A model generated the notes under the pieces. It was not told the origin of the DNA. It saw nothing but the letters and a program-made list of their open reading frames with translations, and ran no database searches. DNA of 64,000 bases, taken from positions 496,001 through 560,000 of the forward strand of contig OX597837.1 of assembly GCA_951406725.2 (NCBI GenBank). The letters are read 5' to 3'. Shown in pieces: positions 12,333-55,939 of the stretch. The translations under genes and the position numbers were made by a program. This DNA is from Octopus vulgaris. Lineage: Eukaryota. How positions within the stretch are numbered: the stretch's first letter is position 1; each line of letters begins with the position of its first letter.

Positions 12333-12403
<71 letters not shown>

Positions 12404-12647
12404 GGAACAAATTTTAAAATAGGATAAAATCTCAATAAGAAATTATCAGGTAGTTAGCGTGAAAAACCTCATAAGAGAAAAAATCTGTAAATTTTTTCAC
12501 TTGAAAATATCTATTTATATTATATAGAGGGCATTATTACACATAGATGCCACACGCTAGGAAGGACTTTTAAAGTCATAACTACCAAAAATAAACAAAT
12601 CGTACCGAATGCAATTCTGGAAGCGAGACATTTAAAAACAGAATTTA

Positions 12648-12711
12648 GTTCCAGATCACCTGTGATTTCGCAATTAACGTATTATCTACGTCTTTTGCTC
12701 TTCAGTGAAAC
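12648..12711 (-). ncRNA. Type I hammerhead ribozyme, canonical core
   Basis: gtttca CTGAAGA GCAA..ACGTA...TACGT..TTGC GAAA TCAC ag GTGA TC tggaac; AUC triplet. Confidence 0.85.
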
Positions 12712-13194
12712 GAATTCAAAATATATCATGAATGAACAAAACCAACATACCAGGCGGAACCAGACAGACAACCGTCGCCTCCATTGCAGCATATGAAAAT
12801 GTTTACCCCTCATATATTTATGTAAATGGCGGGCTTTTTCGAATTGCATTTCGGTGAGAAACGTGCTTCTTCGGAACAAATTTAAAAATAGGATAAAATC
12901 TTAATAAGAAATTATCAGGTAGTTAGCGTGAAAAACCTCATAAGAGAAAAAATCTGTAAATTTTTTCACTAGGAGGGACTTTTATGAGGTTTTTCACGCT
13001 AACTACCTGATAATTTCTTATTAAGATTTTATCCTATTTTTAAATTTGTTCCGAAGAAGAACGTTTCTTACCGAAAAGCAATTCGAAAAAGCCCGCCATT
13101 TACATAAATATATGAGGGGTGAACATTTTCATATGCTACGATATGGTTCCGCCTGGTATGTTGGTTTTGTTCATTCATGATATATTTTGAATTC

Positions 13195-13258
13195 GTTTCA
13201 CTGAAGAGCAAGAGACGTAGATAATACGTTAATTGAGAAATCCCAGGTGATCTGGAAC
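13195..13258 (+). ncRNA. Type I HHR, damaged copy
   Basis: Same motif as 12648-12711, but TTGC>TTGA breaks the stem II closing pair and TCAC>TCCC weakens stem III. Confidence 0.7.
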
Positions 13259-13402
13259 TAAATTCTGTTTTTAAATGTCTCGCTTCCAGAATTGTATTCG
13301 GTACGATTTGTTAATTTTTGGTAGTTATGACTTTAAAAGTCCCTACTAGCGTGTGGCATTTATGTGTAATAATGCCCTCTATATAATATAAATATATATA
13401 TA

Positions 13403-13801: not shown

Positions 13802-13834
<33 letters not shown>

Positions 13835-14097
13835 CAATTAAGGACAACTACTTAATAAGGAAAACTTAACAAGAAATTGTCAGGTAGATAGCGTAAAAAC
13901 CTCATAAGAGAAAAAATTTCGAAAATAATTATTTCTTATTGAACATATTAATTTATATATAGAGGGCATTATACATACATGCCAGAAGGCATTATACATA
14001 CATGCCAAACGCTAAGAGGGACAATTAGTCATTTCTACCAAAAATATTACTAATCCCACCGAATGCAATTTTTCAAAGTAAGACATTTAAAAAATAT

Positions 14098-14145
14098 AGA
14101 CCTGTATCACAGTGATTTCATACTTACGTACTCATCAGCAGGCCT
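14098..14145 (-). ncRNA. Type I hammerhead ribozyme (identical copies at 14578-14625 and 15058-15105)
   Basis: aggcctg CTGATGA GTAC gtaa GTAT GAAA TCAC t GTGA TA caggtct. Confidence 0.85.
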
Positions 14146-15287
14146 GAATGCATTATAAATAAACAACGACCCTGCCCCGCTTAAGTCGATCAGCTAACTG
14201 TTCAACATCAACGAAGCACATGGGTGAGTTTACATATATTACATCCGGTCAAATGGCAAACTTTTACGAATTGCATTTCGGGAGAGGAAAAGTTTTTTCG
14301 GAATAAAAATTTAGCAATTAAGGACAACTACTTAATAAGGAAAACTTAACAAGAAATTGTCAGGTAGATAGCGTAAAAACCTCATAAGAGAAAAAATTTC
14401 GAAAATAATTATTTCTTATTGAACATATTAATTTATATATAGAGGGCATTATACATACATGCCAGAAGGCATTATACATACATGCCAAACGCTAAGAGGG
14501 ACAATTAGTCATTTCTACCAAAAATATTACTAATCCCACCGAATGCAATTTTTCAAAGTAAGACATTTAAAAAATATAGACCTGTATCACAGTGATTTCA
14601 TACTTACGTACTCATCAGCAGGCCTGAATGCATTATAAATAAACAACGACCCTGCCCCGCTTAAGTCGATCAGCTAACTGTTCAACATCAACGAAGCACA
14701 TGGGTGAGTTTACATATATTACATCCGGTCAAATGGCAAACTTTTACGAATTGCATTTCGGGAGAGGAAAAGTTTTTTCGGAATAAAAATTTAGCAATTA
14801 AGGACAACTACTTAATAAGGAAAACTTAACAAGAAATTGTCAGGTAGATAGCGTAAAAACCTCATAAGAGAAAAAATTTCGAAAATAATTATTTCTTATT
14901 GAACATATTAATTTATATATAGAGGGCATTATACATACATGCCAGAAGGCATTATACATACATGCCAAACGCTAAGAGGGACAATTAGTCATTTCTACCA
15001 AAAATATTACTAATCCCACCGAATGCAATTTTTCAAAGTAAGACATTTAAAAAATATAGACCTGTATCACAGTGATTTCATACTTACGTACTCATCAGCA
15101 GGCCTGAATGCATTATAAATAAACTTTTATTCCGAAAAAACTTTTCCTCTCCCGAAATGCAATTCGTAAAAGTTTGCCATTTGACCGGATGTAATATATG
15201 TAAACTCACCCATGTGCTTCGTTGATGTTGAACAGTTAGCTGATCGACTTAAGCGGGGCAGGGTCGTTGTTTATTTATAATGCATTC

Positions 15288-15335: not shown

Positions 15336-16907
15336 ATATTTTTTAAATGTCTTACTTTGAAAAATTGCATTCGGTGGGATTAGTAATATTTTTGGTAGAA
15401 ATGACTAATTGTCCCTCTTAGCGTTTGGCATGTATGTATAATGCCTTCTGGCATGTATGTATAATGCCCTCTATATATAAATTAATATGTTCAATAAGAA
15501 ATAATTATTTTCGAAATTTTTCTCTTATGAGGTTTTTACGCTATCTACCTGACAATTTCTTGTTAAGTTTTCCTTATTAAGTAGTTGTCCTTAATTGCTA
15601 AATTTTTATTCCGAAAAAACTTTTCCTCTCCCGAAATGCAATTCGTAAAAGTTTGCCATTTGACCGGATGTAATATATGTAAACTCACCCATGTGCTTCG
15701 TTGATGTTGAACAGTTAGCTGATCGACTTAAGCGGGGCAGGGTCGTTGTTTATTTATAATGCATTCAGGCCTGCTGATGAGTACGTAAGTATGAAATCAC
15801 TGTGATACAGGTCTATATTTTTTAAATGTCTTACTTTGAAAAATTGCATTCGGTGGGATTAGTAATATTTTTGGTAGAAATGACTAATTGTCCCTCTTAG
15901 CGTTTGGCATGTATGTATAATGCCTTCTGGCATGTATGTATAATGCCCTCTATATATAAATTAATATGTTCAATAAGAAATAATTATTTTCGAAATTTTT
16001 TCTCTTATGAGGTTTTTACGCTATCTACCTGACAATTTCTTGTTAAGTTTTCCTTATTAAGTAGTTGTCCTTAATTGCTAAATTTTTATTCCGAAAAAAC
16101 TTTTCCTCTCCCGAAATGCAATTCGTAAAAGTTTGCCATTTGACCGGATGTAATATATGTAAACTCACCCATGTGCTTCGTTGATGTTGAACAGTTAGCT
16201 GATCGACTTAAGCGGGGCAGGGTCGTTGTTTATTTATAATGCATTCAGGCCTGCTGATGAGTACGTAAGTATGAAATCACTGTGATACAGGTCTATATTT
16301 TTTAAATGTCTTACTTTGAAAAATTGCATTCGGTGGGATTAGTAATATTTTTGGTAGAAATGACTAATTGTCCCTCTTAGCGTTTGGCATGTATGTATAA
16401 TGCCTTCTGGCATGTATGTATAATGCCCTCTATATATAAATTAATATGTTCAATAAGAAATAATTATTTTCGAAATTTTTTCTCTTATGAGGTTTTTACG
16501 CTATCTACCTGACAATTTCTTGTTAAGTTTTCCTTATTAAGTAGTTGTCCTTAATTGCTAAATTTTTATTCCGAAAAAACTTTTCCTCTCCCGAAATGCA
16601 ATTCGTAAAAGTTTGCCATTTGACCGGATGTAATATATGTAAACTCACCCATGTGCTTCGTTGATGTTGAACAGTTAGATGATCGACTTAAGCGGGGCAG
16701 GGTCGTTGTTTATTTATAATGCATTCAGGCCTGCTGATGAGTACGTAAGTATGAAATCACTGTGATACAGGTCTATATTTTTTAAATGTCTTACTTTGAA
16801 AAATTGCATTCGGTGGGATTAGTAATATTTTTGGTAGAAATGACTAATTGTCCCTCTTAGCGTTTGGCATGTATGTATAATGCCTTCTGGCATGTATGTA
16901 TAATGCC

Positions 16908-16974
<67 letters not shown>

Positions 16975-21810: not shown

Positions 21811-22186
21811 TGCCAAGTAATCGACGTTGCAGTGCCAGGGGATCATCATGAAAGAAAGAGAAAAAGTTGATAAATATGGAGACCTGAGAATTGAGATCGC
21901 TAAGATGTGGCAGGTATGAGAGTCGAACAACAGGGTTATCTCTATTGTCATCGGAGCATTGCGTTCAATACCACCCAATCTGGAAAAAAAAACGTCTGAA
22001 AACCTTAAACATACCATACACTCTAGATGTACTTCAAAAGTCGACATTACTTGGAACTGCAGGCATATTGCGTAAAGTACTGTTTGTCTGAGGTCCTTGT
22101 TGTGACTCGACAAACAGTACAAAGCTCCGGCAGATACAATATCTACAATCAGCAACCTCATTATATTGTATACTGTGTGACGTCTA
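21811..22186 (+). mobile_element. R4/Dong-like 3' fragment
   Basis: KEREKVDKYGDLRIEIAKMW...IVIGAL...LQKSTLLGTAGILRKVL (REL endonuclease C-terminus), bounded by (AAT)n. Confidence 0.75.
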
Positions 22187-22188
22187 TC

Positions 22189-25510
<3,322 letters not shown>

Positions 25511-25680
25511 CAGCGTGTATGTATATATATATATATATATCTGTACGCACACACACACACACATGCACACATACACACACACACATACACAAGGACGAAA
25601 CCCTGCTTTGGTGTAAAGTAGAACGCTTTTGCGTACAATAGCAGCACTACCAACTGATTATTGTTGTAGCCTTTTATTAA

Positions 25681-25716
<36 letters not shown>

Positions 25717-26119
25717 TGTATGTATGTATGTATGTATGTATGTATGTATCTATCTATCTATCTATATATGTATATATATATATACACATATACATATACA
25801 TACATATATATGTATGTATGTATGTATACATGCATCAACAGATACAAGCTGTCATGGTAACTTGTATACATATTATAGATATATGCATACATATACGTAT
25901 ATATGTGTATATATATGTATATATATACATATATATACGCATATATATGTATATATATACATATATATATACACATATTTACACACACATATATATATAT
26001 ACATATATATACATGTGTATATATATGTATATACATATATATACATGTGTATATATATGTATATACATATATATACATGTGTATATATATGTATATATAT
26101 ACATATATATATATACACG

Positions 26120-26234
<115 letters not shown>

Positions 26235-26948
26235 CATATATATATACATACACACACACGCACGCACACACACATATATATATTCACACATATATTCTGG
26301 TCTAACAGTTTACACACGACACCTTCGTCTCGATTTGAAAGTATTATTAAGTTGCTTTAAGGGACATAACTCAGTATGACAAGGCGCCATATTATTCAAC
26401 ACACACACACAATCCCACCATTACACATCACTTGTTATGAACTAACTACATTAAACTACGTTTCATATTTGAGACAAGTAATAATCTTTATCCTTTCTCA
26501 GCTCTTGTTATCACATCGTATATTCTAATCTTAATCATAAGCCGCTCGACATCTCCATGAACCAGTCAACTTATGTACAAAATAAAGATTTAATCATAAG
26601 AGAAACATTTTCTTTGCTTTCCGTGTCTTTTCTTTTTTTTCTTCTTATTTATTCGTGTTTGTATAATTTGTTTCTTCTTCTTTTTCTTCTGGTACCCTAT
26701 CATCACGTACCTTCTGGAATGGATATATACTTCTCCTGTTTCAGGCATTAACCCTTTACAGAATGAAATATGGTGCTTGGTCAATATTTAATCTGGTGCT
26801 GTTAATCTCTCCGTTCCACTAACGCACTGCGGATTACTGTATTGTTTCAACAGAGAATTACGTGAAAACCAGACCAAAGCAAAACCAAAGCCTGCTCAAC
26901 CAAACATTTACCCTTCGCTTACCAATATCTGTATGGATTTCTCTTTCT

Positions 26949-26982
<34 letters not shown>

Positions 26983-27304
26983 CCTCACTCACTCTCTCAT
27001 CGAGATGTACGTCTTTCACTCTTACTAGCATGTTTTTCACCACTTTCTCCAACTAATCTCTCTCTCTCGGCAATAGTTAGTCGCTCTTGAACACACAAAT
27101 ATTTATCGCTCTCTCTCTCTCTCTCCCTCCATCTCCCACTCTCTCCTCTCTCTCTCATATTATCCTGTACGTCTCTTTTTCCTTGTTAGTATTATGTATA
27201 TCTTCTCTCTCTCTCTCTCTCTTAGCCTTAAGTCTGTCTCACTCTGACTGTCTATTTCTCTCTGTCTGTTAGGCTGAATAGCTCTCATTCTCTATCACTT
27301 AGCC

Positions 27305-27355
<51 letters not shown>

Positions 27356-27706
27356 ACGCTCTCTCCTCTCCCTCTCTCTCTAAAGTTGTGCTTATCCGAT
27401 TGCTTAACTAGTTGACCTCCTGACCTCTTACGGTCAATTTTCCTGTAAATTTTGGCTGATTTAGAAAATGTTTGGAGAAATATTGAGTTATGAAAGAGAA
27501 AATAAAAGAAAATAAGAGAAGCCAAAGGAAGAAAGAGGGAGGTGAGAGAGAGAAAGAGAAAGAGGAGAAAAACCAATTTAATATTTAAATATTTACTTAT
27601 TTATGTTGTATGTAAATCTACATCTCTTTCTCTCTGTCTGTTTGTCTGTCTGTCTGTCTGTTTGTCTCCCCCCTCTCTCTCTCTCTCTACACACACACAC
27701 ACGCAT

Positions 27707-27764
<58 letters not shown>

Positions 27765-27769
<5 letters not shown>

Positions 27770-28100
27770 TGCAGCGTGGAAGGTGTTTATAAGCCATTTA
27801 AGAAACACACAACAGCCGTTCGATTCACTCCAACATTTAAGTTTAATTTGTCAAAATATTTTCGTCGCTAAAATCCGCGACCTGTTCACTGACAAAAATC
27901 CGTGCTGCACGGATTTTTGTCAGTGAACAGGTCGCGGATTTTAGCGACGAAAATATTTTGACAAATTAAACTTAAATGTTGGAGTGAATCGAACGGCTGT
28001 TGTGTGTTTCTTAAATGGCTTATAAACACCTTCCACGCTGCAATTGTTTTCGTTTCAGCACACAATCTCAGATCAAATTACTTGCTATGCGAGTACATCT

Positions 28101-28102
<2 letters not shown>
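27765..28102. mobile_element. TA-flanked fold-back element: perfect 141-bp palindrome (centre 27906) plus 55-bp extension
   Basis: 27765-27905 is the reverse complement of 27907-28047. Confidence 0.9.
27916..27965 (+). ncRNA. HHR variant with G3:C8 core (mirror copy at 27847-27896, minus)
   Basis: tttgtca GTGAACA g GTCGC ggatttta GCGAC GAAA ATAT TT tgacaaa. Confidence 0.65.
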
Positions 28103-28140
<38 letters not shown>

Positions 28141-28141
<1 letters not shown>

Positions 28142-30643
28142 CTGCTCAATCGAAGTCGACTCTCGGTTACTCGATGGATCAGTGTCCTCCAGTCAGTTCT
28201 ATCCTGGGCCGCTTCCTTCAGATTGGCCATGTCCATTCCGGTATCATTCTTGATGGTGTCAAGCCAGCGGGTTCTTGGCCGGCATCTTCCTCTCTTGCCA
28301 CTGACCATTCCGAGCATGATGTCCTTCTTCAGGGATTTTCTCCGCATAATATGACCGAAATATGTCAATCTATGCTCGGTGATTCTAGCGTCTAGGGACA
28401 GTTTCGGCCTGATTTCGTTAAGAACTTCTCCATTGGTGAGCCTCGCTGTCCATGGAATCCGTAAAAGTCTTCTCTAACTCCAAAGCTCGAATGCATTTAT
28501 TGTCTTATGGTCAGCTTTCTTTAGTGTCCAGGTCTCGCATCCATATTTTGCTACTGGGAAGACAATTGAATTCACCAATCTGCATTTGATAGTGAGTCTG
28601 ATGTCTCTACTCTTCCAGACCCTGCTCATGCTGACCATTGCCTCTCTGCCTAGTAGTATTCGACGTCTAATTTCTGGAGTGCAGTCACCATCTCGATTTA
28701 TTTTGGAGCCAAGGAAGATGAAATCATCAACCACTTCGATCTCTTCATTATCGATCTTGATACTGATGTTTGTTGTGGCTGCTGTTGACATGGTCTTCGT
28801 TTTCTTAACATTGAGGTACAGTCCAAATTTCTCACTCTCTTTCTTGACCAGCAGGACAAGATCCTCCAGATCCTTACTACTCTCCGCCAGCAGGGTTGTA
28901 TCGTCTGCATAGCGAAGGTTATTAATATTTCTTCCTCCAATCCTCACTCCAATGCTGCAATCCTCCAGGCCTGCATTCCTCATGACCTTTTCAGCGTATA
29001 TGTTGAAGGCTGCTGGTGACAGGATGCAACCTTGCCGGGTGCCTTTTCCAATCTCAAACCAATCAGTGTCGCCATATGCTGTCCGCACTGTAGCCTCTTG
29101 CTTTCGATAGAGTGATCTAATACGCTGGACAAGGTGTAAAGGTGTTCCCATTTCCTCCAGACATTTCCATAACTTGTCATGATCAATGCTGTCAAAGTCT
29201 TTGGAGTAATCGATGAAACATGTACAGCTTCTTTTGGTATTCTATTGCCCTTTCCATAATCCACCGTAGGTTGGCGATGTGATAGCGGGTGCCTCTTCCT
29301 TTGCTGAAACCAGCTTGCACCTCTGGCAATTCTCTCTCAATAGTTGTGTTCAGGCGTTTCTGGATGATTTTAAGGAGAATTTTGCTTACATGGGGGATCA
29401 GGGTGATGGTACGGTAGTTTGCGCAGTCCTTTTCTTTGGTATTGGGATGAAAACTGACCTCTTCCATTCCCTTGTCCACTTACAGGTTCACCGTATTCGT
29501 TGGCAAAGCGATGTTAGTGTTTTTGTTGGTATTGGCTTGTGTAATCTTAGTGGAATACCATCAGTACCTGGGGCTTTTCGGTTGGCCAGCTGTTTCATTA
29601 CCCATACCACCTCATCCTCCAGGATGTCTGGCTCCAGTTCCAGTTCCAGTGGCTTCTCTTCTGCATGTTCATCGAGGTTGTTCCCTGCGTACAACTGTTC
29701 AGTGTACTCTTTCCATCTTTTGCTAATCCCTTCTTGGTCATGCAGTTCTTCACCATTTCTCCCTCGGATGGTTGCTTGTCTGGCCATGAATGCTGTACGG
29801 GTCTTCTTTACATGTTGGTAAAGTTCTCTCATGTTCCCTTTCCTGTATGCCTCTTCTGCCCTTGCACATTCCTCATTCCAGTATTTCTCTTTGTCCTTCC
29901 TGGTGGCCTGTTGGAACATTGCATTCAGTCGCCGCACTTCATCCCTGCTTCTGGTCATCTTTGCTCTCCTTCTTTCTTCTGCTATTGCAATAGTCTCCTC
30001 CGAAATCCACTTTGCTGATCGTATGGGTTTCTTGTACAGTACATGTTTCTCTGCTGTTTCAACGACAATTTCCTTCACCTTCTCCCATATTTCTTCTGCT
30101 TCTTGATTCTCTTCGATGGCGAGCAGTTCGAAACGGTTTCTGATCTCAGCGGCATATGATGGACTGATCTTGTTGGTATCAAATTTCAGGCAAGCGGGTG
30201 GTCGCTTGACGCTGCAGAGTCGCATCTTGATCTTGGCAACCAGAACTTTATGGTCAGATTCACAGTCTGCCCCAGGGAACGTCTTCACAGCTTGGACTGA
30301 ACTCTTCCACTGTTGCTGACATAGGATGTAGTCGATTTGATTGCGGTACTGTCCACTTGGCGACGTCCAGGCGTATAGCCGTCTCCTTGGTTGCCGAAAC
30401 CAAGTATGTTTTGTTCTTGACAAAATTGGACCAGTCAGTCTCCTGCTTCATTCCGTTCTCCTAATCCAAATTTGCCAACAATGTCTGCTGCTGCCCTTTC
30501 TCCAATTTTGGCATTGAAATCTTCCAGAATATATACAATATCTGCTCGTGGTGTTTTCTCGATTGCTCCCTGAATTTCTGCATAGAATTGTTCAATCTCC
30601 TCTTCTTCGACGTCGGCATTCGGTGCGTAGATTTGTAGCAATG
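28141..30643 (-). mobile_element. RTE-clade LINE (APE C-terminal part plus RT), frameshifted
   Basis: EDFNAKIG, NQIDYIL, SDH, KAPGTDGIP, NYRTITL, QAGFSKGRGT, RQGCILSP, LRYADD across several frames. Confidence 0.92.
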
Positions 30644-41917: not shown

Positions 41918-43513
<1,596 letters not shown>

Positions 43514-45520
43514 TTTTCCTATGAAAAAGAAAGAGCAGACAAAGAAGCCTGGGCTATAGAAAACATAAAATCTAACCCCAGAGCTTTCTACAGGTATGCC
43601 AAAGAAACAGCTACAGTGCACTGTAGAATAGGGCCACTCCTCGAAAAGGATGGCACACATACAGGAAAACCAATGAGGGTAAGTGAAATACTGAATGAGC
43701 AATTCAAGAGTGTTTTCACTCCACCCCTTGGGCATCTCCAAATCACCAATCCAACTGACTTTTTTACCACTGCAGATATAAAATCAGAGGCGGCGACGAT
43801 AGATTACATCGATATAAAGGAAGACGATGTAACCAAGGCTATAGATGAAATGAAAACAGACTCAGCTACTGGCCCCGATGGATTCCCGGCAATCCTCCTA
43901 AAAGCATGTAAGAGAGTCCTAGCAAGACCACTGCAGTTCCTCTTTCAGAGCTTCCTTGCAGCTGGCAAACTTCCAGGAAAACTGAAGGAAGGTAAAATAT
44001 GCCCCATTCATAAAGGAGGTAGCAGAGCGGAAGCCAAGAACTATAGACCTATCTCTCTGACCTCACACATCAGCAAGGTCATTGAACGAATAGTCAAAAG
44101 GAAGCTGATCACCTTCCTTGAATAGAATGACTTGCTGCCCGACACCCAACATGGTTTCCGACCAGGGAGAAGCTGTTTAACTCAGCTCCTACAACACTAT
44201 GACTGGGTGCTGAAACGGCTGCTCAACCACTCAAATGTGGAAGTGATATATCTCGACTTTGCAAAGGCCTTTGATAAAGTCGATCATGGAATGATATGTC
44301 ACAAACTGCGTGATCTCAACATAGTTGGAAAACTGGGAGAATGGCTTCATGACTTTCTGAAGGATAGAAGTCAGGTGGTAGTAGCCAATGGGGCCACCTC
44401 CATTAACACACAAATAGTGAGCGGTGTTCCGCAGGGCACTGTTCTGGGACCACTACTGTTCATAATGGCCCTCTCAGACATGCCCTCAGCCACGCAGAGA
44501 GCCACGATCACAAGTTATGCAGATGATACAAAAGTTTCACAGGCAATACAGAACCCTGAGGACACTAAACACCTGCAATGTGAGCTGGACGAAATATACA
44601 AGTGGGCTGAAAAGAATAGCATGCAGTTCAATGCTGGAAAGTTTCAAGCTTTATACTATCAGCATGCAAAACTGAATGCAATACCCAATGAATACACTGG
44701 ACCCGGAGGGATTGCAATCCCAGAGGCACAATCAGTGCGTGACCTGGGTATTCACATGAGTGATGACGCGACCTTTCATGTACATGTTGCTAAACTGACA
44801 ATGAAATGTAGACGGCTGGCTGGATGGATTCTTAGAACCTTTAGAACAAGAGAACAAGAAACCATGATGGTCCTCTGGAAGACACTTGTCCTAAGCCACT
44901 TTGACTATTGCTCTCAGCTATGGTCACCATCCAGTGTCAAGTTGATCACAGAACTTGAGGCGATCCAACGAAGCTACACAAAGAAGATAGCCTCTATGCA
45001 GAATGTAAGCTACTGGGAAAGACTCAAGAGATTAAAATTATATTTCCTGGAGCGTAGGCGGGAAAGATATGCCATAATATACATCTGGAAGATCCTGGAG
45101 GGAAGTGTCCTGAACTTTGGCATCGAGAGTTACGCAAATGCCAGAACTGGGCGCCACTGCGTGGTGCCTAGGACTCCAAACCTGCCATCAAGATGTAGGA
45201 CAAGATTCTGTGATAGCCTGGGCTTCCGAGGCCCACAGCTCTTCAATATCCTCCCGAAGAACCTGAGAGACCTGCATGGGGTGGATACAGATGTCTTTAA
45301 AATGAAGCTGGATCTCTTCCTGTCAGGTGTCCCAGATGAACCAACTTCACGGCAGGAGGGGCAGATGAGGGCAGCTGCATCGAACTCTCTCATGCACCAA
45401 ATAGCAGTTGCTAGAAAGCCTCCATGAAGTGAAACCAAGTAGCAACACCAAATGGCGGTGCCCCAGCATGGCCACAGCTCATAAGCTGAAACTAGAATCA
45501 ATCAATCAATCAATCAATCA
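43514..45520 (+). mobile_element. 5'-truncated CR1-group LINE (RT), one in-frame stop
   Basis: [57 protein letters not shown]; TAG at 44123; ORF ends at 45427; (ATCA)n tail. Confidence 0.92.
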
Positions 45521-49407: not shown

Positions 49408-49623
49408 GACCGGAGTAAACACATAAATGTGAAACAAGGTGGAAAAAAGAGTACTCAAATACCAGTGGTAGAGTAATATGCTTTATTTAAGCAGCAGAAA
49501 ATTCAACAAAATCTGTTATCTGAGTTTCTCGTTGCCGTTCATCAGACAGTTTTTTGTCTGATGAACGGCAACGAGAAACTCAGAGTAACAGATTTTGTTG
49601 AATTTTCTGCTGCTTAAAATAAA

Positions 49624-53547: not shown

Positions 53548-55492
53548 CCATCCGAGCTGAGCAGGGGGGTTGATCCACAGGAGAACTGCGGTCCATAGAC
53601 AGCTTTCAGCGCCTCGTAGAATTTCTTCACGAGGAAGCCATCGCACGACTCCCCCAGGTGCCGACAAACCACGAGTTGGCTGTTCCCCCTGCAGTCGAGG
53701 AAGTGAGCAGAGCCATCAAAAAAATGTCCACCGGCAAAGCTCCAGGCTCTGACGCCATCCCTGCAGAGGTGTTCAAGTCGGGCGGCCCCACCATGATCAG
53801 TCAGCTCACCAGCCTGTTCCAGTCGATGTGGGACAGGGAACAACTCCCTCAAGATTTCCGGGACGCAACAATCGTCCACATTTATAAGCGGAAAGGAGAT
53901 CCGCAGTCCTGCGACAACCACCGAGGTATCTCCCTCTTGTCCATAGCAGGCAAGATCCTGGCCCGGGTCCTGCTTGACCGCCTTCTGGAACACTTGGAGC
54001 AAGGCCTTCTCCCTGAGAGCCAGTGTGGCTTCCGCGCGGGTCGAGGGACCACTGACATGATATTCGCCGCCCGCCAGCTCCAGGAGAAATGCATGGAGCA
54101 GCACCTTGACCTCTGCATGACCTTTGTTGACCTCACCAAGGCCTTTGATACAGTCAGTCGGGAGGGACTCTGGAAGGTCATGGGAAAATTTGGTTGCCCC
54201 AGCAAATTTATTGCAATTGTCCGCCAGTTCCACGACGGAATGACAGCCAGAGTCCTTGAAGACGGCAACTCATCTGAAGCCTTCCAGGTGACCAACGGAG
54301 TCAGGCAGGGCTGTGTCCTGGCCCCAACACTGTTCAGCATCATGTTCTCGGCAATGCTGTCCGACGCCTTTAGGGACTGCAAGTCCAGTATCGACATCAA
54401 GTACAGGACAGACGGGAAACTTTTCAACTCCAGAAGATTGCAGGCTGTCACAAAGGTGAGGGAGACAGTCGTCAGAGACTTTCTCTTTGCTGACGACTGC
54501 GCCCTTAATGCAATCAATGAGCAGGAGATGCAGCTCGAGATGGACAGGTTCTCATCAGCCTGTGACAACTTCGGTCTCACCATCAGTGCCAAGAAAACCG
54601 AAGTGATGTTTCAGCCAGCCCCCGGCAAACAATACCATGAGCATCAGATAAGGGTGAACGGACGGATCCTACGAGTGGTGGAAAACTTCACCTACCTGGG
54701 CAGCACTCTCTCCTGCAATGCCAACATAGATGCTGAAACCATCAACAGAATCTCCAAGGCAAGCAGCGCGTTTGGGAGACTGCGCAAGAAAGTCTGGGAG
54801 CGGAGAGGAATCAGCCTCAACACCAAGCTGAAAGTCTACCGGGCAGTCGTGCTTACCACCCTACTATACGGCTGCGAGACGTGGACTGCTTACCGAAGGC
54901 ACGAGCGCCAGATAAACCACTTCCATCTCAGGTGTCTTCGGAACCTCCTTCACATCCGCTGGCAGGACAAAGTCCCAGACACGGAAGTTCTGAAGCAGGC
55001 AGATCTCCCTAGCACCATCACAATCATGCGCAAGGCCCAGCTGAGATGGGCGGGCCACGTCTCCCGCATGTCCGACACTCGCATCCCAAAACAGCTCTTC
55101 TACGGTGAACTCGGCCAGGGCAGGCGCAAAGTCGGAGGGCAGAAGAAGCGCTACAAGGTCTCAAGGTCTCTCTCAAAGACTTCTCCATCGGGACAGAGAC
55201 CTGGGAGACACTTGCTGCCAACCGCTCATCCTGGCGCAGCGCAATCACCGTGGGAGCAGGGACAGCCGAGGAGGGACGGATTCGGTCAGCGGAGCAGAAA
55301 CGTCAGATGCGTAAAGCCAGAGCCGCCTGCACCAGTAGCACGGCCCCTACCCACTTCTGCCCCACCTGTGGGAGGGGCTTCCTTGCCCGGATTGGCCTCA
55401 TCAGCCACCTCCGGTCTCATGGCGGCAGTTCCATCATATGATATCAGTTGGTCATCTTCGAACCGAAGGACGAACATTATTATTATTATTAT
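53548..55492 (+). mobile_element. 5'-truncated and 5'-inverted RTE-clade LINE, young and GC-rich
   Basis: KAPGSDAIP, DNHRGISLL, ESQCGFRAGRGT, FVDLTKAFD, GVRQGCVLAP, LFADD; C-terminal CPTCGRGFLARIGLISHLRSH after a frameshift near 55160; (ATT)n tail; 53548-~53628 is inverted. Confidence 0.93.
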
Positions 55493-55939
55493 TATGTATA
55501 TATATATTTTTTTTGTATGTATGTATACATATACACGGGAATAGTTTTTCCTTGTAATGTGTGCGATTGAATACACGGCCATTTTCACGTTCAATGTCCT
55601 CCAATTAAAGATTCTTCGTTTTTAATTATCAGCGTGTTTATGATTAGTTTGGATGTATAAAAGTTTCTTAATTCTATTCAGAAGATAAGACAGCAAAGGC
55701 ATTGAAAGATTAATTCATTGAAAGATTAATCTTAGCAATATTATTCCCCCAAAAAAGAAATAGAAAGAACCACCAAAGAAATCGGAAAAATCTTCAGTAA
55801 AAAGGATTAGAATCGCTGTCTGTCGAGTTTTCTATAGAACACACACACACACACACTTATGCACTTACAAATATACGCAGACATAGATTTGCCTGTGTGT
55901 GTGTGTGTGAATAAGTGTGCACTTGTTTTTGTGTATGTG

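Follow-up and report, generated by a model that had tools for sequence, protein, structure and literature searches.

Are the arrays of animal retrozymes written directly from RNA circles, or are they amplified later as DNA? This question, together with that of how Penelope-like elements produce inverted copies with a one-sided tail, is raised by a 3.1-kb head-to-head array of a 480-nt unit that carries seven type I hammerheads and lies embedded in (TA)n. The array is located in a stretch of 64,000 nt of octopus DNA, hereafter the window (G000:C24:496001-560000 of a 2.8-Gb genome). On the evidence set out below, it probably represents one insertion by a non-autonomous retrozyme of the hammerhead kind, which a Penelope-like element with reverse transcriptase (RT) and GIY-YIG domains would have mobilised in trans.

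The positions of the array features are given in Table 1. The left arm comprises 1293 nt without a mismatch to the unit, and its outer end reads ...TAATTGCTA, overlapping (TA)15. The right arm begins TTTTATTCCG (15125, phase 480), is 99.7% identical to the unit and runs into (TA)33. In the unit, the left-arm outer end and the right-arm start are only 3 nt apart (gcta/aat/tttt). Alignment of the arms to the unit thus bears out the geometry described in the initial annotation, with arms that diverge at 15124/15125, a left end at 13832 overlapping the flanking TA, breakpoints 3 nt apart in the unit and seven ribozymes in about 3.1 kb, for which we count seven exact 48-nt hammerheads. The five nucleotides preceding the junction (TAAAC) match unit positions 475-479 (TAAAT) at four of five positions, and the junction may therefore lie within an imperfect microhomology.

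Table 1. Position of the array, its components and a neighbouring element in the window. Unit positions ("phase") are numbered from window position 15605 = 1.
Feature	Window position	Strand	Remarks
Older sister-family element	12401..13400		Asymmetric inverted anatomy like that of the array; CUGAAGA hammerhead
Left (TA)15 target run	13804..13833		Shares 2 nt with the element end
Left arm, 2.69 units, phase 144 to 476	13832..15124	-	Outer end is family terminus B (phase ~476)
Left-arm hammerheads	15058..15105, 14578-14625, 14098-14145	-	Exact copies
Head-to-head junction between 5'-truncated arms	15124..15125		Without exact microhomology; imperfect match 4/5
Right arm, ~3.74 units, phase 480 to 357	15125..~16918	+	Outer end is family terminus A (phase ~357)
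Other plus-strand hammerheads	15288, 16247, 16727	+	Exact copies
Reference 480-nt unit	15605..16084	+	33% GC; stop-free stretches of up to 54 aa
Type I hammerhead (CUGAUGA ... GAAA, palindromic helix III)	15767..15814	+	Predicted cut after 15807
Stretch of 119 nt from terminus A (357) to terminus B (476)	15962..16080	+	Counterpart of the Penelope "tail"
Right (TA)33 target run	16908..16973		Overlaps the element's own TA-rich A end

Elsewhere in the window, a CTGATGAACGGCAACGAG... stretch found on both strands (49545-49558) is a small inverted duplication unrelated to the array. Pieces of several LINE-type reverse transcriptase frames, recognized by eye in the list of open reading frames, lie at 22000-30500, 43500-45450 and 53574-55544.

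The unit is non-coding and low in GC, and it has no LTRs. Its circular form is predicted to be strongly self-paired, with a folding energy of -127 kcal/mol against -89.8 +/- 5.9 kcal/mol for 60 dinucleotide shuffles. A motif within it reads as a type I hammerhead, in which CUGAUGA, a stem II of 4 bp and GAAA stand between stem I and a palindromic helix III. Cleavage is predicted to follow phase 203, and the motif is exact over 48 nt in four plus-strand and three minus-strand copies. Rfam at gathering thresholds gave no match, and the minimum-energy structure in a plain fold of the ribozyme region is without the catalytic core and no better than that of shuffles (z -0.58). Related copies and subfamilies carry compensatory changes in stems I and II, and the pair at the base of stem II varies among them between G-U, A-U and G-C; because of these changes we regard the hammerhead structure as conserved. 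Hammerheads usually have G10.1-C11.1 at this position, where G-U stands in the array ribozyme.

The array belongs to a family of several hundred copies, and 274 exact hammerheads are found genome-wide. The exact B end (...taattgcta) followed by TA has 293 matches in the genome and none in a reversed-pattern control, and one exact form of the A end has 88. We studied 118 insertions, a non-random sample in which the array locus and 38 other best-scoring loci are the 39 best full-unit matches of 959 candidates and the remaining 79 were chosen by their B end from the first 100 listed of the 293. Ninety-four of the 118 are inverted and 24 have a single arm. The 32 inverted loci that were not selected on their ends have 64 outer ends, of which 61 belong to one of two narrow classes, class A at phase 338-366 (mostly 357-363) and class B at phase 462-6 (mostly 476-480), and the circular permutation of ends considered in the initial annotation is thus not what the family displays.

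The two classes of ends come in pairs. Among the 94 inverted insertions, 81 are A/B, one is B/B and none is A/A; the other 12 have one non-canonical end, and at least 4 of these show A sequence by eye. A separate A-anchored set (n = 30) gives the same picture, with B at all 19 visible opposite ends, four insertions running off the locus and seven with a single arm. TA stands on both flanks in 84 of the 94 inverted insertions, a target-site duplication being unreadable inside (TA)n, and the longest arrays still have exact A and B ends. The 81 A/B insertions therefore consist of an inverted 5'-truncated copy with a one-sided extension, here of 119 nt. The same 119-nt stretch between A and B contains the segment best conserved with the older sister family (91% over 58 nt).

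This older family is represented about 400 nt left of the array by a retrozyme with a unit of ~460 nt, whose A end matches that of the array, whose other end is longer and whose two arms meet at a near-mirror junction; the sister-family motif has 663 exact matches genome-wide. A variation is found at about 20 loci among L039-L118, where a subfamily 88-95% identical to the unit lacks a 23-nt duplication (unit ~457 nt) and has unchanged A and B ends.

The anatomy of these insertions matches that of Penelope-like elements. As described in PMC8557442, the latter often insert with an inverted, 5'-truncated copy and with a tail of 30-40 bp on just one side, and (TA)n is the target of several clades. 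For a purified Penelope-like element, PMC11167929 reports that both target strands are cut and extended, that ribozyme cleavage is dispensable and that reverse transcription starts at two internal sites on the RNA whose spacing equals the tail length. In our comparison A and B behave as those two start sites, 119 nt apart and one per side of the insertion. We therefore propose that a Penelope-like enzyme would cut both strands of a (TA)n run, and that each cut end would prime reverse transcription at a fixed internal site of the RNA, either A (phase ~357) or B (phase ~476). The two cDNAs would end at variable points and then be joined head to head. Each would pass through many units of one haplotype, for which the simplest template may be a 480-nt circle copied by rolling circle.

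The last step is suggested by how variants are distributed within and between insertions. For loci within 3% of the unit, 78 were available for divergence and 65, with overlapping copies, for variant calls, the uniformity of units being that of the assembly. Divergence is 0.36% within an arm (45 loci) and 0.51% between opposite arms (44 loci), compared with 1.78% between loci (2927 pairs). The variant calls at the 65 young loci comprise 112 that are fixed, being shared by all copies, 12 that are partial and 137 singletons. Seventy-nine of the fixed calls are on both arms and 23 are private to one locus, and 34 distinct haplotypes are found across 49 loci. Even a 15-kb array of 32 units has two variants in 32/32 copies and one in 3/32.

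A new mutation present in every unit of both arms implies passage through one unit, and ongoing conversion is unlikely because the singletons stay unshared. Both arms of an insertion, and all its units, thus usually have a single haplotype, and this points to a single-event insertion through a one-unit bottleneck, of which the simplest form would be rolling-circle reverse transcription. A further observation concerns the ribozyme. The predicted cut site lies inside an arm in 62 of 81 insertions, from which it follows that a cut linear monomer was not the template; nor do inner ends pile up at that site (2 of 186 against 4.3 expected). A monomer circle probably accounts for both the haplotypes and the crossing of the cut site, and a circular RNA is what we infer from them. 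On these data the single retrotransposition event claimed in the initial annotation is plausible and its rolling-circle copying of a 480-nt circle is probable. Of the grounds offered there, the twin-priming geometry given for the former fails and the self-cleavage of a linear multimer given for the latter is weak, as discussed below. More specifically, each array may record one Penelope-type complex that primed both strands of a cut (TA)n at two fixed sites, 119 nt apart, on a single 480-nt circle and copied it by rolling circle towards both sides of the insertion for up to ~31 rounds (15 kb), a reading of somewhat less than even likelihood that we put forward tentatively.

Seven of the 65 young loci are mosaic (L011, L012, L013, L026, L032, L033 and L045). 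L026 (2053-6207) interleaves two unit types and speaks against a single monomer circle, because such a circle cannot give two interleaved unit types; L032 (2054-6353) is a mosaic with repeated variant patterns, and these two loci are the best counter-examples. At L011-L013 a variant occurs in matching units of both arms with the unit order alike, which puts end B one unit upstream of end A. Such a pattern agrees with a multimer template, with fold-back copying or with conversion between the arms. Because of the patterns in L026, L032 and L011-L013, some events would therefore involve multimers, template switching or later change at the DNA level.

An insertion of 15.6 kb (G000:C1:64639653-64655251; L046 and L047) has an A arm of 511 nt and a B arm of ~31 nearly identical units. 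Either rolling-circle copying gave a very long product here, or the insertion is itself a source array.

The existence of long uniform arrays as possible sources makes room for a template without any circle, namely a linear transcript, long and uncleaved, from a source array that was uniform beforehand; Penelope-type priming on this transcript would take place at the same two fixed sites. The mosaics L026 and L032 and the matched order in L011-L013 agree with such a transcript, as does the recurrence of 17 singleton variants in different loci. The objection that a linear multimer should self-cleave, from which the initial annotation had argued for a circle, is weak, given the palindromic helix III, the G-U pair at the base of stem II and a core that is not the minimum-energy fold. 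Motifs with a palindromic helix III act as dimers and some are of low activity (described in PMC4209133), and the purified Penelope-like protein acted in vitro predominantly on unprocessed RNA (reported in PMC11167929). What a linear transcript leaves unexplained is the fixation of 23 private variants in every unit of one insertion, and likewise the 34 uniform haplotypes over 49 loci. Since source arrays accumulate single-unit mutations, their daughters would be expected to be mostly mosaic. We therefore consider a linear template rather unlikely, and retain the circle as the simplest template.

The inner ends, where the two arms meet, bear on a different alternative, in which a single cDNA made from RNA folds back and copies itself into the second arm, and the endonuclease trims the product at the other fixed site. 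Of the 90 copies, 16 have inner ends at mirror positions to within 10 nt, where permutation gives 5.1 (p ~5e-5), and some junction centres are short palindromes (L075, L099 and L038). This excess of mirrored ends comes mostly from the shorter, B-anchored set, and the 29 top-score loci show no significant excess (3 against 1.7). Without the hotspot at 245-285 it weakens at 10 nt, to 8 against 4.2 (p = 0.055), but persists at 20 nt, with 15 against 7.6 (p = 0.008). Mirrored inner ends fit two cDNAs that stop at one point of the RNA as well as fold-back copying in a subset of insertions. In 61 of the 81 A/B loci we analysed whether one arm could be nested in the other. Nesting is possible in 47 of these young loci, in keeping with fold-back, and neither arm fits within the other in 14, for which reason fold-back is not the whole story. 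Fold-back is moreover silent on the circle as template of the first cDNA. Taken together, we judge it improbable as the origin of the arrays, and two separately primed cDNAs remain our reading of the paired arms.

Inner ends are concentrated at phase 250-275 (31 of 186 against 10.1 under a uniform null), an enrichment to which we give no weight, since such a null takes no account of 5' truncation that sets out from fixed ends. According to the predicted fold of the circle, end B (phase ~470-476, 16074-16080) closes a helix with phase ~256-262 (15860-15866), near the commonest inner ends. Five loci (L049, L076, L083, L129 and L135) have short shuffled or re-oriented pieces of the unit at the junction, which suggests repeated template jumps before joining.

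Growth at the DNA level, in which short insertions are expanded by unequal crossover or slippage and homogenised by gene conversion, corresponds to the local amplification offered in bioRxiv 10.64898/2026.07.22.740005 and could produce the repeated unit patterns of L032 and L026. It sits poorly with the variant spectrum, in which the 137 singletons are unshared against only 12 partial calls, and with the 32-unit array, which has no blocks of neighbouring variants; the exact A and B ends of even the longest arrays speak against it too. We regard it as very unlikely.

The 3-nt offset at the array locus had been read in the initial annotation as the signature of L1-type twin priming, in which case the left end would be a chance annealing site adjoining the stop of the first strand. 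In L1 twin priming, the variable second priming site adjoins the stop of the first cDNA. Priming there begins on poly(A) and then uses an internal annealing site (PMC2837659). In 5'-inverted L1 insertions as described in that article, both target strands serve for priming, as they probably do in the octopus arrays, and in either case the 3' ends of the two arms face outward and the arms meet in the interior; unlike these insertions, the octopus arrays have two fixed start sites, no poly(A) and non-adjacent breakpoints. The offset itself, together with the 2-nt overlap with TA, is the evidence for twin priming, and under a uniform phase a single locus would show an offset of at most 3 nt, whichever the orientation, with a probability of 0.029. 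Among 90 loci at least one such case is expected with a probability of 0.93. We carried out the comparison across genomic copies that the initial annotation had named as decisive on 90 A/B copies, with two inner ends corrected by hand and nine A-anchored loci added. Breakpoints are adjacent within 5 nt in one copy, the array locus itself, against 2.1 expected, and the reciprocal adjacency, in which the B arm starts within 5 nt of A, occurs in two copies, again against 2.1. There is no excess of adjacency at any tolerance from 3 to 50 nt in these 90 copies, and the 3-nt adjacency is unique to the array locus among them, so that the twin-priming claim fails the test. The left end, moreover, is a fixed family terminus with 293 matches before TA and not a chance internal site, a poly(A) tail is absent and the ends pass straight into (TA)n. 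The adjacency is real but coincidental, not above chance, and twin priming of the L1 type is hardly credible as the origin of the array.

An assembly artefact from fold-back or chimeric reads can be dismissed with near certainty, since the 94 inverted loci have different junctions, asymmetric fixed ends and distinct flanks and an older diverged element 400 nt away shows identical anatomy, even if the junction at 15124/15125 is bridged by none of the contig pieces listed from four other sequencing runs that all hold the unit, an absence that, with 1718 pieces outside the listing, proves nothing either way. The unit is present in sequencing runs of seven studies, none of which is recorded as RNA.

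The unit and the array contain no RT/GIY-YIG open reading frame, and intact RT and GIY-YIG frames of 781 aa are present elsewhere in the genome. Among 38 GIY-YIG loci (from 148 scored matches of 6136 candidates) we found no autonomous partner sharing unit sequence, and the only unit matches in these loci are nested sister retrozymes. Because none of the 38 shares unit sequence, a Penelope-like partner is something that we infer. The loci L179-L182 belong to a young Penelope-like family with an intact 781-aa RT and GIY-YIG frame, direct terminal repeats and TA flanks, and have an overlapping open frame of 330-480 aa upstream of it. A different Penelope-like element (L184, 2821-5983) contains an inverted 5' copy that is perfect over 766 nt, and its 3' repeat bears a motif resembling a hammerhead.

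By its sequence features the element files as a non-LTR retrozyme, one that would work like a non-autonomous Penelope-like element. With the metazoan non-LTR retrozymes described in PMC7229834 and bioRxiv 10.64898/2026.07.22.740005 it shares tandem units that are non-coding, low in GC and equipped with one type I hammerhead apiece, a dispersed occurrence as dimers to long multimers and a strongly self-paired predicted circle. It differs in its length of 480 nt (subfamily ~457), compared with the ~170-400 nt reported there as a description and not as a limit, and in the predominance of head-to-head arrays, whose two termini are fixed and lie in (TA)n. In the available text, the word "inverted" does not occur in PMC7229834 and occurs once in the bioRxiv article.

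With Penelope-like elements, as described in PMC8557442 and for the Anolis Poseidon element PAc in PMC11167929, the octopus element has in common an inverted copy that is 5'-truncated and extended on one side only, TA-rich targets, a hammerhead in the repeat and, probably, the priming of both strands from a pair of internal RT start sites. Unlike them it has no open reading frame and no sequence link found to an autonomous family, its "tail" measures 119 nt compared with 30-40 (PMC8557442), and both its arms can be many units long, up to ~31. Non-autonomous Chlamys elements such as MRC1 (PMC8557442) are likewise of Penelope type with multicopy head-to-tail insertions. According to the same source they are mostly without canonical hammerheads, target (CA)n or (C)n and resemble their autonomous partners at the 3' end, in all of which they differ from the octopus element. 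The copying of retrozyme circles to tandem cDNA by Penelope-like enzymes has been proposed in PMC7229834, and bioRxiv 10.1101/2022.05.23.493040 describes a non-autonomous Penelope-like family actively transposing in an alga. Our literature search, which covered mainly the main texts of freely available papers, found no account of inverted retrozyme arrays with paired fixed ends or of haplotype uniformity per insertion.

The single 3-nt adjacency that prompted this study is of no consequence. Hundreds of young insertions serve as natural replicates in which ends, junctions and haplotypes can be read, and they argue for the use of Penelope machinery by retrozymes, for a paired use of its two start sites with one at each target strand, and for a bottleneck of a single unit in the making of the arrays. 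In vitro work could draw on the 480-nt unit as it stands, as a substrate with start sites already predicted. If true, the single-circle reading would join the two-start-site mechanism of Penelope-like elements in vitro to the proposed circular intermediate of animal retrozymes.
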